Assembly: GCA_038063975.1 (NCBI GenBank)
Contig: JBBTTY010000041.1
Span: forward strand, 1 to 55,876
DNA: 55,876 nt
DNA from: Patescibacteria group bacterium
Lineage (GTDB): Bacteria; Patescibacteriota; Minisyncoccia; Phycocordibacterales; UBA6065
Direction of reading: 5' to 3'
Shown: piece after piece, positions 4,669 through 52,915 of the stretch
Layout of the letters: each line of letters opens with the position of its first letter
Numbering within the stretch: position 1 is the stretch's first letter
Position numbers and translations under genes: made by a program
The notes under the pieces: model-generated
Databases searched by the model: none
Told to the model about the DNA's origin: nothing
What the model saw: only the letters and a program-made list of their open reading frames with translations

Positions 4669-4763
4669 AAAAACATCAGATATAGTTTTGCGCTACTCGG
4701 GACGGGACCCTTGCCTAAGGGCAACCCCATCCCTCCGTTGCTCAAACTATATCTGATGTTTTT
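4669..4763 (+). repeat. Family-1 nested hairpin element, copy A (20-bp AT-rich stem + 55-nt GC-rich core)
   Basis: AAAAACATCAGATATAGTTT pairs with AAACTATATCTGATGTTTTT; core 4689-4743 is 54/55 identical to 36134-36188. Confidence 0.85.
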
Positions 4764-9310: not shown

Positions 9311-9431
9311 CTGCAATGTTGCTGAAATGCTTGCGAGCGGAGACTCTCGGAGCGCGGGCGCGAGAGTGAGCTGACGTGCCAGCAGGCACGTACAGCGTGC
9401 TCTGCGAGCAAGCATTCCAGCAACATTGTAG
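9311..9431 (+). repeat. Family-2 nested hairpin element, copy 1 (24-bp stem + three-way-junction core)
   Basis: CTGCAATGTTGCTGAAATGCTTGC pairs with GCAAGCATTCCAGCAACATTGTAG; core shares GGAGAC..TCGGAG..GAGAGTGAG..CAGCAG..CGTGCTC with 19571-19707 and 52321-52443. Confidence 0.85.
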
Positions 9432-9459
9432 GTGAAAGAAAGTATACTTTCTTTCACCT
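9430..9459 (-). terminator. Perfect 30-nt palindrome directly after ctp stop
   Basis: AGGTGAAAGAAAGTATACTTTCTTTCACCT. Confidence 0.5.
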
Positions 9460-9461
9460 AT

Positions 9462-14601: not shown

Positions 14602-14704
14602 TAATATCTCCTTTTATCAAAATCCTAACACAATAATTTAAAAAATCAAAGTTTACGAAATCGATTATGTAAAATATGTAAAAAAACTATACCTGCCGTT
14701 TTTT

Positions 14705-15703
14705 TTACTTCTTCCTCTTCAAAACTTTCATGACGGCGGTTTTTATGTGAGAAGTTCCCATGCCGTAATGTTCTACGAGCTCCACTGGCGTGCCTGATTG
14801 GCCAAATTTGTCGCAGATGCCTATAAATTCAATCGGCACAGGTAAATTTGAGGCGAGCAATTCAGCAATTGCACTTCCCATACCTCCGGCAATCTGATGC
14901 TCTTCTACTGTGACGATGGCACCGGTAGATTTCGCCACTGCCAATATTATTTTCTCGTCGAGAGGTTTTATAGTAGATAGATTGACAACAGTCACACCGA
15001 CTTTTTCTTTTTCCAATTCTCTGGCGACCATGAGCGCTCGGTAAACGAGAGCTCCTGTGGCTATGATAGCGACGTCTGGTTTACCTGTAATCGGTTCAAA
15101 ATAGATTTGCGCCTTGCCTATTTCAAAAGGCGTATTTTCGGTCGTTATAACGGGCGTTTTGTCCCGAATAAGACGTATATATATAGGTGTTTTTGTCTTC
15201 GCGGCCTCAATAGTCGCCTTTTTAGCTTCAATGTGATCACAAGGAGAAATAACCGTCATATTTGGCAAGACGCGCATGAGAGCGATATCTTCAATCGCTT
15301 GGTGTGTGCCACCATCAGGACCCACAGAAACTCCGGCGTGAGAGCCTATAATTTTTACAGGCACATCATTGTATGCGATGGTCGTGCGTATCTGCTCCCA
15401 ATTTCGGCCCGGGGAAAACATGGCATAAGAAGAGACAAAAGGAATTTTGCCCATGGAAGCCATGCCGGAAGCGACGGTTACCAAATTTTGCTCCGCCACA
15501 CCGATTTCTACAAATCTCTTTGGAAATTTTTCGGCGAAAAGGTGCATTTGAGTGGACTCAGTCAAATCAGCGCAGAGCCCAACCATATTTGTGTCTTTTT
15601 CCCCTGCCTCAAGTAAGCCCTGGCCAAAACCTTTTCGAATTGGCACTTGTTCGACGTCTCTGTCGAATACTTTTGGATTTAATTTTTGGTTTTGGGAAAT
15701 CAT
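14705..15703 (-). CDS. Transketolase, C-terminal (pyrimidine-binding + C-terminal domain) subunit
   Basis: FVEIGVAEQNLV, typical Pyr/C-terminal halves of split transketolase, 332 aa. Confidence 0.88.
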   Translation of the reverse strand: MISQNQKLNPKVFDRDVEQVPIRKGFGQGLLEAGEKDTNMVGLCADLTESTQMHLFAEKFPKRFVEIGVAEQNLVTVASGMASMGKIPFVSSYAMFSPGRNWEQIRTTIAYNDVPVKIIGSHAGVSVGPDGGTHQAIEDIALMRVLPNMTVISPCDHIEAKKATIEAAKTKTPIYIRLIRDKTPVITTENTPFEIGKAQIYFEPITGKPDVAIIATGALVYRALMVARELEKEKVGVTVVNLSTIKPLDEKIILAVAKSTGAIVTVEEHQIAGGMGSAIAELLASNLPVPIEFIGICDKFGQSGTPVELVEHYGMGTSHIKTAVMKVLKRKK

Positions 15704-15735
15704 ACAATAGGCTTGATCATTGCCTGTTTAGTATA

Positions 15736-16038
15736 TCACCCGTGTGTTGGTTTTACAGTGAGTGTAAGGTTAAGACCTTTGGTTATTTTTTGTAGAAACG
15801 AGAGTGTTGGATTCCCCCTACCAGATTCAAAGCGTGCGAGGGATGATTGAGCTATCTTTATACGTTTTGAAAATTCTCTCTGTGAAAGTTTCTTTTCATT
15901 TCTAGCTTTAATTAAAGCCCTTATGATACTAAATTCAAACTCCATGTCGTCATAAACCTTTTTTAGCTCAGGGTCATTTTCAAAAGCCTCTTTTATTACT
16001 TGTTTATGATTTATAAATTTTAATTTTTTCATATCCAT
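15736..16038 (-). CDS. XRE-family HTH antitoxin (HigA-like)
   Basis: LSQREFSKRIKIAQSSLARFESGRGNPTLSFLQKI HTH_XRE core; sits 10 nt downstream of a RelE/Gp49-like toxin remnant. Confidence 0.75.
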   Translation of the reverse strand: MDMKKLKFINHKQVIKEAFENDPELKKVYDDMEFEFSIIRALIKARNEKKLSQREFSKRIKIAQSSLARFESGRGNPTLSFLQKITKGLNLTLTVKPTHG

Positions 16039-16047
16039 AATGATAGC

Positions 16048-16324
16048 TTATGTGTTATCAGAACGCAACAGGTTCATAAGGTTAATTGCTTTGTCAATAT
16101 CTTTTCTTTTTAATTTATTTTGTTTCTTTGTCACAATATGCAAAAGATAAGCTTTATTATTATGAAAACAATACAAAATTCTAATCTCCGTGTCTCGAGT
16201 TTTAATTCTAAGTTCAAATAATCCTTTCCTCAAAGATTTTGAAAATGGTAAAGAGATTTGATTTTTTGAATTTATCTAGTTCCTCTATTTTTTGCTGTAC
16301 TTTTAAAAAGTATTCAATTTCCAT
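16048..16324 (-). pseudogene. RelE/ParE-superfamily (HigB / Gp49-like) toxin interrupted by a frameshift
   Basis: ATG 16324 opens a 36-codon frame (MEIEYFLKVQQKIEELDKFKKSNLFTIFKIFEE..) that stops at 16214-16216; the family core LFELRIKTRDTEIRILYCF..LLHIVTKKQNKL continues in another frame from 16233. Confidence 0.6.
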
Positions 16325-16414
16325 CACCAAACCCTAACAAATGGGAGATAAAGAAAAGATAAAGAAAATTTAATAACTTATTTGACCCTACGGCAAGGTT
16401 ATGATCGGTATATT

Positions 16415-19558: not shown

Positions 19559-19567
19559 ATTATAGCA
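19559..19567 (-). promoter_or_regulatory. Extended -10 element (TGCTATAAT) upstream of gap
   Basis: Reverse complement of ATTATAGCA, 21 nt upstream of the gap ATG; no clear -35. Confidence 0.4.
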
Positions 19568-19570
19568 TTG

Positions 19571-19707
19571 TAAGCAGAAAAGAAAGCGAAAAGAAGTCTG
19601 TGAGTGGAGACTCTCGGAGCACGACGGTGCGAGAGTGAGCTGCTCCGTCAGCAGACGGAGACAGCGTGCTCCACGAGCAGACTTCTTTTCGCTTTCTTTT
19701 CTGCTTA
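19571..19707 (+). repeat. Family-2 nested hairpin element, copy 2 (perfect 30-bp stem + three-way-junction core)
   Basis: TAAGCAGAAAAGAAAGCGAAAAGAAGTCTG pairs perfectly with CAGACTTCTTTTCGCTTTCTTTTCTGCTTA; conserved core 19601-19677. Confidence 0.88.
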
Positions 19708-19749
19708 TTTCTCCCCATATATTCCACAGCTTATCAACATTATTAAACC

Positions 19750-19777
19750 TTGATAGACGTTTTAAAATGAGTATAAT
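19750..19777 (+). promoter_or_regulatory. Sigma70-like promoter of the MerR-like gene
   Basis: TTGATA, 16-nt spacer, TATAAT; 25 nt upstream of ATG 19802. Confidence 0.55.
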
Positions 19778-20050: not shown

Positions 20051-20084
20051 AGCTATCTCGGTTATCTCGGATACACGAGATAGT

Positions 20085-20187
20085 AAAAAAAGTGGCAGAT
20101 ATAAGTTCTCATTGCTCGGGAGGGGACCCTTGCCTAAGGGCAATCCCTCTCCCTCGCAGCCTCGAACTTATATCTGCCACTTTTTTT
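20085..20187 (+). repeat. Family-1 nested hairpin element, copy B
   Basis: AAAAAAAGTGGCAGATATAAGTTC ... GAACTTATATCTGCCACTTTTTTT around the 55-nt core 20109-20163. Confidence 0.85.
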
Positions 20188-20192
20188 ACCAT

Positions 20193-20555
20193 CTATGAAA
20201 TCGATGTAATCGCTACTTTAAAATACGGCTGACGATGGCCTTGTTTTTTAAAATATTTGCTTTTTGGCTTGTAATGGACGACGGTTACCTTTGGATCGCG
20301 ACCAATTTCCTTTATTTCGCCCTCCACCTTTGAATTGCTCACAAATGGAGTTCCCACTACAGTTTGACTGGCATTATCCACTAAGAGAACTTTATCAAAT
20401 GTAATCTTACCGCCTATAACGTGATTTCCGATGATTTTTTCTATTTTTATGATATTTCCCACACTTACTTTATATTGCTTGCCTCCGGTCATTATAACAG
20501 CAAAAGCACTAGTTCCAATTACCTTTTGCGTCTTTTTTGTTTTATCTGTAGCCAT
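20193..20555 (-). CDS. rplU: 50S ribosomal protein L21
   Basis: FAVIMTGGKQYKVSVGNII core; 120 aa with short N-terminal extension. Confidence 0.88.
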   Translation of the reverse strand: MATDKTKKTQKVIGTSAFAVIMTGGKQYKVSVGNIIKIEKIIGNHVIGGKITFDKVLLVDNASQTVVGTPFVSNSKVEGEIKEIGRDPKVTVVHYKPKSKYFKKQGHRQPYFKVAITSIS

Positions 20556-28448: not shown

Positions 28449-28494
28449 TAAAAGTGGCAGGTATAAGTTCGAGAACTTATACCTGCCACTTTTT
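28449..28494. terminator. Bidirectional terminator hairpin, empty-site paralog of family-1 stems
   Basis: AAAAGTGGCAGGTATAAGTTC GA GAACTTATACCTGCCACTTTT; stem differs from 20092-20108 by one compensated pair. Confidence 0.8.
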
Positions 28495-36107: not shown

Positions 36108-36214
36108 AAAACAAAAATAGCAGATATAAGTCTTGCGCTACTCGGGACGGGACCCTTGCCTAAGGGCAACCCCGTCCCTCCGTTGCTCAGACTTATATCT
36201 GCTATTTTTGTTTT
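36108..36214 (+). repeat. Family-1 nested hairpin element, copy C
   Basis: 26-bp stem AAAACAAAAATAGCAGATATAAGTCT / AGACTTATATCTGCTATTTTTGTTTT around the 55-nt core 36134-36188. Confidence 0.88.
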
Positions 36215-47745: not shown

Positions 47746-48312
47746 ATGAAAAATTATGCTAGCCGGACACATTCGGAAATGCTAGATGTGCTCATGGATG
47801 CTAAATCTCCAGGGCCTGAAATTTACTATTATATGGTTCGTGGTGGCAAGGAAAAGACAAACATTACAATTCTGGAACCAGGCATAATTGGTGACGAGTA
47901 TATAAAAACATACGGTCACTATCATGTAGGAAAACTAGACGAGACTTATACAATTCTTCAAGGAAAAGGTGTGATCGTCATGCAAACGAGAAAAATTGAT
48001 GAAAAAGGAAAACCGCTAGACGAAGAAATTGAAACTTTTAGAGCGATTAGCGTAAAAACTGGAGATAGGGTTTTCATTCCGAGCGGAGCGGGTCATTTGG
48101 CCATAAATACCGGCGAAACATGGTTCGTTACTTCAGACGACAGTCCGGTCAATTTTCTAGAAAAAGATCCTATCAGTTTACCTGGACACGCCGATTACGG
48201 CCCCTTCAAACGACTCCACGGCGCTGCCTATTATGTCATCAAAAAAAATAACGAACCTACTCTCGTGAAAAATCCTCTTTATAAAGTAATTCCTAAAGCA
48301 AAAATAGAATAA
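47746..48312 (+). CDS. Cupin-type glucose-6-phosphate isomerase (archaeal cPGI-like)
   Basis: 188 aa, TYGHYH and PSGAGHLAINTG cupin metal-site motifs as in Pyrococcus-type PGI. Confidence 0.65.
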   Translation: MKNYASRTHSEMLDVLMDAKSPGPEIYYYMVRGGKEKTNITILEPGIIGDEYIKTYGHYHVGKLDETYTILQGKGVIVMQTRKIDEKGKPLDEEIETFRAISVKTGDRVFIPSGAGHLAINTGETWFVTSDDSPVNFLEKDPISLPGHADYGPFKRLHGAAYYVIKKNNEPTLVKNPLYKVIPKAKIE

Positions 48313-48426
48313 AAAATACAAGTACAAGCTAATCGAGAACCTCCGCAGGGAAGGATTTGTCATAGGTCTGTCCTTGACAAATCCGACCCGAGGACTGTTC
48401 GAGAGTAGTTTGTACTTGTATTTTTT
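48311..48426. repeat. Long nested hairpin (21-bp AT-rich stem, GC-richer branched core), singleton
   Basis: AAAAAATACAAGTACAAGCTA pairs with TAGTTTGTACTTGTATTTTTT; inner 10-bp hairpin GGATTTGTCA/TGACAAATCC. Confidence 0.8.
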
Positions 48427-48429
48427 ATA

Positions 48430-51619: not shown

Positions 51620-52324
51620 ATGACATTCGAAAAACAAATCATGGAAAAAATAAGAGGGAGACGGCTCCGGCCGATGCCAAAGGGTTATTTCTATGTGCGC
51701 GACGTCGTTGTCTGGCTTCTGCTCGGTGTATTTGTGACGGCTCTGTCTCTCGGTTTTGCTATGACTATGTTTATGATTCGCGGCACAGACTTTGGGCTTT
51801 TTGAAAAGCTCGGCTTGTCGAGTGGTCAGAAAATAATTTATTCCATTCCATTTTTTTGGATTGCTACATGCATCGCCTTGGCTTTAGCTGTCTTTATCAA
51901 TTTTCGAAATACTCGCAGGGGTTATCGCATGAGCACGAAACAATTTTCTCTGATAACTGTGCTCATTGCTCTGGCTTTCGGCAGTGTTTTGTACTCTCTC
52001 GATATCGCTAAATATGTAGACAAGACCGCTTCGAAAAACTTTCCTTTGTACAATTCTGTCGTGCCACTCAATATAAATAATTGGCTCGATCCAGAGCACG
52101 GTCTGCTCTCTGGCGCTGTGCGGGACAGGGAATCAGAATCTGATTTCATGCTCCGAGACGCAAATGGTATCTTGTGGCATGTAACGGGCAGAAATATTGA
52201 AGTGGAAAAAGGTTTCAAATGGGCTAGTGGTGATAGAATCAAAATTATAGGCGTACAGTCCGGACTTGATGAATTCCGCGCTATAGAAATATTGCCGTGG
52301 GAGGAGAAACCTACAAAGGAATAA
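51620..52324 (+). CDS. Polytopic membrane protein, possible non-canonical anti-sigma partner
   Basis: 16 nt downstream of the ECF sigma gene; 3-4 TM helices; no HxxxCxxC zinc anti-sigma motif. Confidence 0.4.
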   Translation: MTFEKQIMEKIRGRRLRPMPKGYFYVRDVVVWLLLGVFVTALSLGFAMTMFMIRGTDFGLFEKLGLSSGQKIIYSIPFFWIATCIALALAVFINFRNTRRGYRMSTKQFSLITVLIALAFGSVLYSLDIAKYVDKTASKNFPLYNSVVPLNINNWLDPEHGLLSGAVRDRESESDFMLRDANGILWHVTGRNIEVEKGFKWASGDRIKIIGVQSGLDEFRAIEILPWEEKPTKE

Positions 52325-52443
52325 AATCGCAAGAATAGTTGCTTGAGGAGACCTTCGGAGGACGCGAAGGCGTCCGAGAATGAGACGCCCCGCCAGCAGG
52401 CGGGGATGTCGTGCTCCGAAAGTAACTATTCTTGCGATTTTAT
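52321..52443 (+). repeat. Family-2 nested hairpin element, copy 3 (divergent)
   Basis: ATAAAATCGCAAGAATAGTT pairs with AACTATTCTTGCGATTTTAT; overlaps the stop codons of both convergent flanking genes. Confidence 0.85.
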
Positions 52444-52817
52444 TCTTTTATAGTAATCATCACACGAATGTCTAAATTCATGCGGTCGTAAAAAGAATAT
52501 GTGCCCGGACCGAAAAAAGAAAGAGTGTAACTCTCGCCCGTTCCGAATTCTCCCGATTCCAGCCTAGCATCACGCTTTGATGATCTCTCTTCGGCGATAG
52601 TGTGCCGACTTTCGTCTAGAACCATAAAAACTATCTCATCGCCTGGTCGGGCCGTAACGGAAATCGGTTCCGCCCTGTCCTCAAAGAGAAGGATTTTATG
52701 GATGGTACCTCCGCCAAAGAAAACAGAAGCGGTATTATCTCCTTCTCGACCTAACCTTTTTGTGAGAGCAAAAGTTCCCGCCAGAGCGAGCAGAAGAAAA
52801 AACCAAATTAAAACCAT
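52440..52817 (-). CDS. Secreted/membrane-anchored cupredoxin-like protein lacking Cu ligands
   Basis: Signal anchor MVLIWFFLLLALAG; PGDEIVFMVLDESRHT beta-sandwich-like pattern, no Cys; start trimmed to ATG 52817. Confidence 0.35.
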   Translation of the reverse strand: MVLIWFFLLLALAGTFALTKRLGREGDNTASVFFGGGTIHKILLFEDRAEPISVTARPGDEIVFMVLDESRHTIAEERSSKRDARLESGEFGTGESYTLSFFGPGTYSFYDRMNLDIRVMITIKE

Positions 52818-52915
52818 TTTAGTATTCACGATAGTATTGTACCATACTCGTCTATCCGAGATAACTATATAAATCAATGGTATCTCGGTAATTTTAGATT
52901 TTTTAATTTAATTAT

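Follow-up and report, generated by a model that had tools for sequence, protein, structure and literature searches.

A covarying three-way-junction family at the tips of intergenic hairpins in Paceibacteria-type Parcubacteria: a candidate mobile structured element

What is the GC-rich structure carried at the tip of a long AT-rich hairpin between divergent genes for GAPDH and a small MerR-type HTH protein in the 55,876-nt window, the whole stretch of Patescibacteria DNA analysed here? The hairpin, at 19571–19707 on the plus strand, is the second of three in the window that enclose a common core, which we refer to as Family-2. The other two lie at 9311–9431 (copy 1, core 9339–9403) and 52311–52453 (copy 3, core 52347–52417), also on the plus strand, giving a density of three copies in 56 kb. 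The core of copy 2 is a three-way junction at 19606–19672, defined by its fold and by a covariance model match of 91.5 bits; the outer arms of copy 3 overlap the stop codons of both convergent genes. The exact 14-mer GGAGACYYTCGGAG is present at these three loci only, the cores have a GC content of 66–69% in a genome of 41%, and the hairpin ends differ among the copies (CT..AG, TA..TA and CTA..TAG). The flanking genes in the window have housekeeping functions (GAPDH, the small MerR-type HTH protein, L21, RmuC, L9, an S41 protease and a sigma factor), and the top-ranking protein matches carry the label Candidatus Paceibacterota or Taylorbacteria.

On the plus strand, every window copy has the three-way junction as its minimum-free-energy fold (z-scores relative to dinucleotide-shuffled sequences of −14.1, −9.6 and −10.9), and the sequences at the three loci are as the original prediction described them. 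In copy 2, a perfect AT-rich stem of 30 bp (19571–19600 with 19678–19707) leads through a U·G and tandem G·A pairs (19601–19603/19675–19677) to P1, formed by GTGGAG at 19604–19609 and CTCCAC at 19669–19674. P2a (ACTCTC, 19610–19615; GAGAGT, 19631–19636) stacks straight on P1, and the GGA bulge (19616–19618) is followed by P2b (GCAC-GACG-GTGC, 19619–19630). J2/3 is GA (19637–19638). P3 spans 19639–19665 and comprises 11 bp with the AGCA loop at 19650–19653 and a bulged A at 19661, and J3/1 is GTG (GUG in RNA; 19666–19668). Some details of the fold have had to be amended: J2/3 had been read as GAG, but the last G pairs within P3; P2a, given as ACTCTC/GAGAGT in every copy, is ACCTTC/GAGAAT with C·A mismatches in copy 3; and the indels introduced into P3 of copy 3 are not needed, all three copies fitting the arrangement TGAG + 10 nt + AGCA + 12 nt + GTGCTC. 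A covariance model search found no decayed copies of Family-2 in the window.

The pattern of conserved letters, run on 185,579 species genomes, was found at 7 sites in 5 MAGs, one of the matched records being labelled Parcubacteria GW2011_GWA2_40_14, and a looser pattern in which P1 and most of P2a were left free gave 42 metagenome loci. A covariance model made from 10 cores returned 49 matches, including the window and MAG copies and 39 additional ones on metagenome contigs; these represent 46 unique loci and 41 distinct core sequences. The host range is that of Paceibacteria-type Parcubacteria. The conserved-letter pattern had 0 matches in IMG/VR and blastn gave none in phage and plasmid collections, and a phage or plasmid origin was rejected on these grounds.

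Standard pairs occupy 94.2% of the pair cells among the 41 distinct sequences, compared with 33–55% when the partners are slid, in an alignment that was fitted to the model and leans towards the structure, a bias from which the 10-sequence MAFFT alignment is free. Both sides change in 18 of the 24 pairs, well above shuffled and slid controls, and the double-sided changes span P1 (GGAG/CUCC, AGAG/CUCU, UCAG/CUGA), the whole of P2b and the whole of P3. The unpaired letters are much more constant than the helices, and the length of P3 is fixed. J2/3 is GA in all 41 cores, the AGCA loop is retained in 40 and the J3/1 GUG in 38, so that the predicted conservation of the last two holds nearly without exception. 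The GGA bulge, which had been called invariant, occurs in 34 cores, the remainder having AGA, GCA, ACA or GAG; model-found members without TCGGA carry AGA, GCA or ACA. The GGA, TGAG, AGCA and GTGCT letters were partly imposed by the search patterns, but several model matches lying outside those patterns (for example L018:9849, L046 and L015) retain most of them.

Weaker matches are sister variants in which the GACG-loop and AGCA-loop hairpins are retained: variant 2b at L022:2829, L030:2741, L051:14489, L052:20353 and L050:8717, and variant 2c at L050:8164 and L052:14152. The motif is kept across MAGs whose GAPDH proteins are only about 70–89% identical, and copies inside one genome can differ wholly in P2b and P3 and yet keep the pairing and the invariant nucleotides. 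Orthologous copies in the same orientation in L011, L025 and L036 display an apparent stepwise compensatory path from C–G through C·A to U–A. With all four helices covarying in the larger alignment and the single-stranded nucleotides nearly invariant, we conclude, in agreement with the original prediction, that the core is a selected structure and that Family-2 is a real multi-copy family.

This structure matches no family in Rfam 15. A scan with this database, which covered the hammerhead, twister, twister-sister, pistol, hatchet, HDV-like and hairpin ribozymes as well as riboswitches, gave only tRNAs at the gathering threshold in the window and 10 loci, and only generic miRNA-precursor hairpins and noise for copy 2 at E≤10; this agrees with the original prediction, which recognised no described ribozyme or riboswitch family in it. 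Several familiar possibilities were set aside on what we take to be their defining features, which are missing or variable in the divergent members: a CsrA-type GGA sponge, Shine–Dalgarno sequestration, a kink-turn, a bulge–helix–bulge intron, an SRP- or 5S-like fold and an MS2-like operator. In the literature we found no described equivalent or structured repeat for CPR/Patescibacteria.

The stems that enclose the core are layered. A whole hairpin has 20–48 outer pairs, and the original prediction regarded these stems as unrelated and specific to each locus. This is true of the outermost layer, which consists of pre-existing local hairpins or of inverted copies of the local flank. The inner part is different: members of each of four subfamilies (a–d) have a closing stem of 15–25 bp in common across unrelated contigs, a subfamily being a core together with the closing stem that it shares at different loci. 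Thus the 30-bp outer stem of copy 2 comprises an outermost local part, CAGAAAAGAAAGC, and an inner part, GCGAAAAGAAGTCTG-TGAGT, which is the stem of subfamily (d), found elsewhere as GCGAAAGRARGTCTG-YGAGC in L018, L022, L023, L030, L031 and L047. Several subfamilies conserve purine-rich internal loops, among them tandem G·A pairs and a GUYGA/GARAAAG loop. Long arms are often perfect, and stems without a core and solo arms also occur. In subfamily a (L035, L001, L044, L021, L016, L003 and L014), a conserved outer motif, CAAAACUACGGCGAGUG … CCGAGACAAGAGUUUUG, surrounds the Family-2 hairpin and may be another element into whose tip Family-2 became nested.

Family-2 is not alone in occupying hairpin tips. 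The window also carries two further GC-rich core families in this position, together with core-less versions of their stems. The GC-rich core of Family-1 (…CTCGGGACGGGACCCTTGCCTAAGGGCAACCCCGTCCC…), of 55 nt, is borne on stems with CAGATATAAGT in common; the family is present in the window at 4669–4763, 20078–20194 and 36108–36214 and has relatives in L051 and L056. A hairpin at 28450–28493 has the same stem as that at 20078 and no core, with one pair compensated from A–T to G–C. The third family, at 48309–48428, has the core …GGATTTGTCA-N-TGACAAATCC… flanked by CGAGAAC/GTTCGAGAG and occurs also in L052, at the MerR–GAPDH and L21/MerR sites, and in L050, replacing Family-2 or Family-1 at orthologous sites. 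Permissive Rfam scans gave no match to either Family-1 or the third family.

The window also holds a solo 3′ arm of the Family-1 type, AACTATACCTGCCGTTTTTTTT, at 14685–14706, which has no partner arm and is apparently a remnant; the corresponding RecR–transketolase site of L052 holds a variant 2c element in reverse orientation. Close by, at 15689–16414, about 700 nt separate two transketolase halves and contain a 100-aa open reading frame on the minus strand (15736–16038), where L051 and L052 have only 24–27 nt.

Which strand is active, and what relation does the element bear to its neighbours? Among 35 copies with both neighbouring genes called, 15 are antisense to co-directional genes and 9 sense, with 7 flanked by convergent and 4 by divergent genes; orientation relative to the genes is close to random, and a sense-strand 3′-UTR element or riboswitch was rejected for this reason. 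Copy 1 is antisense to both its neighbours. When upstream regions were aligned at the hairpin base, neither a promoter-like motif at a fixed distance nor a universal T-run was apparent. The extended −10 noted beside copy 2 is present, but it is on the minus strand, where ATTATAGCA at 19559–19567 reads TGCTATAAT from 19567 down to 19559, pointing to GAPDH and away from the element. It is kept as TGNTATAAT in three relatives (L050–L052), and we therefore assign 19559–19567 to the GAPDH promoter. The promoter of the MerR-type gene, TTGATA-16-TATAAT, is at 19750–19777 on the plus strand, downstream of copy 2. It follows that copy 2, lying between two divergent promoters, is upstream of both, in DNA transcribed by neither gene. 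An independent small-RNA gene with its own promoter was rejected, there being no motif at a fixed distance and the −10 near copy 2 being on the other strand. Relatives also retain an inverted repeat, CTTATCAA-N12-TTGATAG (19730–19756), that extends into the −35 of the MerR-type promoter and probably serves the MerR-type regulator as its operator.

The outer stems favour the strand of the core. With the core swapped for a neutral loop, the stem is more stable on that strand in 32 of 43 copies, and transitions between the two arms give 71 G·U on the core's strand versus 26 on the other, counts that are not independent because copies within a subfamily are related. By our tally, the G·U bias is seen in both antisense (20:8) and sense (23:7) copies. 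The recurrent G·A pairs are likewise specific to the core's strand. The core helices themselves are uninformative in this respect (29 G·U and 25 A·C), since the type-B P2a contributes one of either kind. The six hairpin elements of the window all share the plus strand; a replication-strand bias, the signature of single-stranded-DNA transposons, was dropped from consideration, pairs of copies on other contigs being opposed in 4 cases and co-oriented in 3.

Relatives with GAPDH or S41 proteins 81–89% identical to those of the window are syntenic with it at 67–82% DNA identity, and comparison of orthologous sites reveals gain, loss, replacement and inversion of the element, although the direction of a change, insertion or deletion, is inferred from few genomes and with no rooted tree. 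At the MerR–GAPDH site, where the window has copy 2, an unrelated 28-bp stem in L052 bears a third-type core, the sequence in L050 is a gapped mixture, and L051 has nothing beyond a 10-bp hairpin, whose homologue in the window is the outermost portion of the stem. At the convergent L21/MerR site, four genomes have four different cores, all flanked by A7...T7. At the copy-3 site, L054 has the same outer arms in a plain 23-bp hairpin with a 7-nt loop, the window has Family-2 with its own 16-bp stem at the same tip, and L056 has Family-1 there. In genomes with the hairpin, its two arms supply the last codons of both convergent genes, (K/R/E)-E-stop, the residues being KE in L054 and the window. 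At this site L055 lacks the hairpin and has different, longer C-termini, from which we conclude that the palindrome rewrote two protein ends. In the window the genes concerned are 51620–52324 (plus strand) and 52440–52877 (minus strand), whose K-E-stop ends are encoded by the palindrome arms.

At the S41–L9 site of copy 1, L057 has a 17-nt spacer and L059 and L060 have unrelated spacers, while the subfamily-(d) stem present in L052 and L058 lacks a core but still includes a remnant of the 3′ strand of P1. The window has the orthologue of this core-less stem, at 9429–9460 (strand unassigned), plus copy 1. Of the two outer arms of copy 1, the 3′ one, CAGCAACATTGT, corresponds to a local stretch present once in L052 and L058 (GAGCAACTTGT), and the 5′ one, CTGCAATGTTGCTG, repeats this stretch in inverted form. 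At the L9/L27 site, L052 carries a variant 2b element and the window and L057 have none. More distant relatives have ordinary GC-rich intrinsic terminators with A/T flanks at this site (L059 4280–4595 and L060 4305–4798; for example, AAAAAAGCCCCGCGAGATGCGGGGCTTTT), and the hairpin-tip elements are therefore confined to a narrower clade. In a further pair of loci, L006 and L011, the flanks are 77% identical over 915 nt and lie in opposite orientation, whereas the element is in the same orientation in both and 86% identical; the core has therefore flipped inside one orthologous hairpin. One stem position is G·U relative to the core in L011 and A·C in L006, which suggests that the outer stem stayed in place and that only the inner part was flipped.

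Comparison of filled with empty sites revealed no direct target-site duplication; the two flanks of a copy instead complement each other. MITE-like elements had been set aside in the original prediction, but at orthologous sites Family-2 is gained, lost, inverted and replaced in the manner of an interspersed mobile repeat. Like a classical MITE, Family-2 is short, non-coding, multi-copy and interspersed, and it is polymorphic for presence or absence at four orthologous sites. Classical MITEs, however, have family-wide terminal inverted repeats and direct target-site duplications, whereas the arms of Family-2 are conserved only within subfamilies (a–d) and direct duplications are lacking. The layout is in fact the opposite: the centre of Family-2 is conserved and its termini are variable.

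Element sites also coincide with irregularities in the metagenome assemblies. Runs of N fall exactly on the MerR–GAPDH site of L050 and the copy-3 site of L056, and at L023:576–646 the two halves of P3 belong to different subfamilies and fail to pair. Either the assemblies are broken or chimerised by the repeats at these sites, or the populations are heterogeneous.

Taking these observations together, we somewhat favour the view that Family-2 is a non-autonomous mobile structured element that resides at hairpin tips and is recognised as a folded single strand. The spreading unit appears to be the core, a GC-rich three-way junction of ~67 nt, with its subfamily-specific closing stem, about 105–115 nt in all, and its landing place would be the tip of an intergenic hairpin or palindrome, often a bidirectional terminator. 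Insertion there would be tolerated because the hairpin is lengthened and not destroyed, and the element may be neutral to the host or of use to it as a terminator or hairpin. Following insertion, the arms could grow outwards through inverted copying of the flank, recombination between the arms could flip the core, deletion of the core would leave a plain hairpin, and a different core family could take over the same tip. Four features suggest that a conserved partner, presumably an apparatus for copying or moving Family-2, recognises one of its strands in folded form, as RNA or single-stranded DNA: unpaired nucleotides that hardly vary, a P3 of constant length, tandem G·A pairs and G·U wobbles specific to one strand. 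Mobility at hairpin tips would account for the layered stems, the interchangeable core families, the near-random orientation, the terminator-like flanks and the core-less remnants. Against it, no transposase, reverse transcriptase, recombinase or parent autonomous element was seen in the annotated neighbourhoods of the inspected loci, direct duplications are lacking, the termini are variable and the window has yielded no decayed copies. Moreover, the pairing and invariant letters kept in each copy look, from the sequences, like purifying selection in place, which would be unexpected for a purely selfish element. Mobility thus leaves the retained pairing, the invariant letters and the absent direct repeats unexplained.

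These same features keep alive the main rival, which we regard as unlikely though a serious contender: that the core is a host-functional RNA domain, such as a protein-binding or RNP module, an exonuclease roadblock or a small ribozyme, borne on long hairpins. The long stem would then be a putative RNase III processing or stabilising stem, and spread and turnover would be secondary. Conservation that is stronger in the unpaired nucleotides than in the helices is what such a domain would show, as are a P3 of fixed length, the recurrence of tandem G·A and purine-rich internal loops in the stems, the 71:26 bias of G·U towards one strand and the compensatory substitutions made in place at an orthologous locus. 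Its persistence across MAGs with GAPDH about 70–89% identical and the want of decayed copies in the window point the same way. A host RNA is harder to reconcile with a gene orientation that is near random, a core inverted between orthologues and upstream regions with no promoter motif at a fixed distance, or with the placing of copy 2 upstream of both divergent promoters and of copy 1 antisense to both neighbours. Furthermore, the element is absent from the orthologous sites of close relatives, which have unrelated cores instead, and so no individual locus needs Family-2.

A further reading, which we put forward tentatively and regard as unlikely, makes the core a new active module, a small catalytic or protein-recruiting fold of RNA or single-stranded DNA that homes specifically to the apical loops of hairpins, terminators and other hairpin elements among them. 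Such a module would need neither terminal repeats nor direct duplication of its target in order to spread, its trace being inverted duplications of the flank, and several unrelated core families would have this hairpin-tip lifestyle in common in CPR bacteria.

It is improbable, in our estimation, that palindrome dynamics without any selected function are responsible, with template switching or fold-back repair perfecting and extending inverted repeats and common ancestry explaining the letters. The outer 5′ arm of copy 1 is indeed an inverted local flank, the two arms at the copy-3 site give the convergent genes a common K-E-stop ending, long arms commonly pair perfectly, and core-less stems and solo arms exist. 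Template switching would, however, erase bulges and asymmetric junctions, and yet J2/3, J3/1, the bulged A and the 3-nt bulge are all still present across 41 sequences in which the helices have diverged to saturation and the unpaired letters are nearly invariant; nor would the 71:26 G·U bias and the strand-specific G·A be expected if both strands were treated alike. Arm growth can be explained in this way; the preservation of bulges and junctions and the wobble bias cannot. Least probable of all is that the hairpins are only elaborate intrinsic, bidirectional terminators: about half of the copies do look like these, with an A-run at the 5′ base in 22 of 43, a T-run at the 3′ base in 22 and both in 17, many lie at gene 3′ ends, 7 lie between convergent genes, and all variants at the L21/MerR site keep their A7...T7 flanks, but the T-run is missing from half of the copies, ~35 conserved nucleotides or a three-way junction are superfluous for termination, distant relatives have ordinary GC-rich terminators at the same sites, and copy 2, which as a whole was not called as a terminator, lies between the divergent promoters of genes that the original prediction had already noted as divergent, with no gene to terminate.

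As a candidate mobile element at hairpin tips, Family-2 is placed here with the structured interspersed palindromic repeats, and its likeness to several of these is evident. The Correia elements (CREE/NEMIS) of Neisseria are, like Family-2, intergenic interspersed repeats of ~100–150 nt with inverted-repeat arms and a conserved core, which fold as long RNA hairpins, lie adjacent to genes and vary in presence between genomes; they affect transcripts via RNase III binding or cleavage (PMC2649163). A Correia element is bounded by conserved terminal inverted repeats of 26 bp and has an IHF site and a TA target duplication, none of which is found in Family-2, where the central covarying three-way junction is conserved and the arms are unrelated between copies. 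SPRITE, bcr1 and similar repeats are also terminator- or cruciform-like with predicted RNA structure, and for bcr1 compensatory base changes and non-conserved genomic positions have been reported (PMC3184786). However, bcr1 is flanked by 5-bp direct repeats and restricted to a single species group (PMC3184786), whereas Family-2 has no direct repeats, keeps its junction and loops invariant across distant MAGs and is nested in other hairpins. The GC clusters of yeast mitochondria and the double-hairpin elements of fungal mitochondria (PMC4478555) resemble Family-2 as GC-rich, foldable mini-elements in a compact AT-rich genome, with fast turnover at homologous positions, merging or shuffling of modules, and no enzyme or known mechanism of their own. 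Family-2 differs from them in being bacterial (CPR) and in its three-way junction, invariant loops, covarying helices and location at hairpin tips.

Comparable structure-based repeats are those of the REP/REPIN–RAYT (Y1) system and the REP-targeting insertion sequences, in which a folded single strand is recognised by an enzyme acting in trans and palindromes serve as insertion targets (PMC2817692, PMC3333891, PMC1525189). REPs are imperfect palindromes of 20–40 nt with a conserved 5′ GTAG, whereas Family-2 has a 67-nt three-way junction and no GTAG signature; the conserved parts of a REPIN are at the hairpin ends and those of Family-2 at the tip. No RAYT gene was seen in the gene tables of the inspected loci. 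The R″/R′ boxes of integron attC sites (RYYYAAC...GTTRRRY) are absent from the hairpin base in all three window copies. Family-2 is not a member of any of these groups, whether Correia/CREE, SPRITE, bcr1, GC clusters, REP/RAYT or palindrome-targeting insertion sequences.

In practical terms, the repeats coincide with gaps and chimeric joins in MAG assemblies. If confirmed, Family-2 would represent a structured motif from candidate-phyla-radiation bacteria that is absent from Rfam 15 and has ~35 conserved nucleotides and covariation in every helix, and it is a good candidate for assays of self-cleavage, protein binding and RNase III processing. With moderate probability, it conceals a new RNA activity or a new mode of mobility. 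The combination of a conserved centre, variable complementary flanks, nesting at tips and no direct repeats would point to a route of mobilisation not described before. For the organisms themselves, it would mean that very small genomes host dynamic populations of hairpin-tip elements, of several families and at roughly one element per 8 kb in the window, which remodel intergenic regions, terminators and even the C-termini encoded by neighbouring genes.
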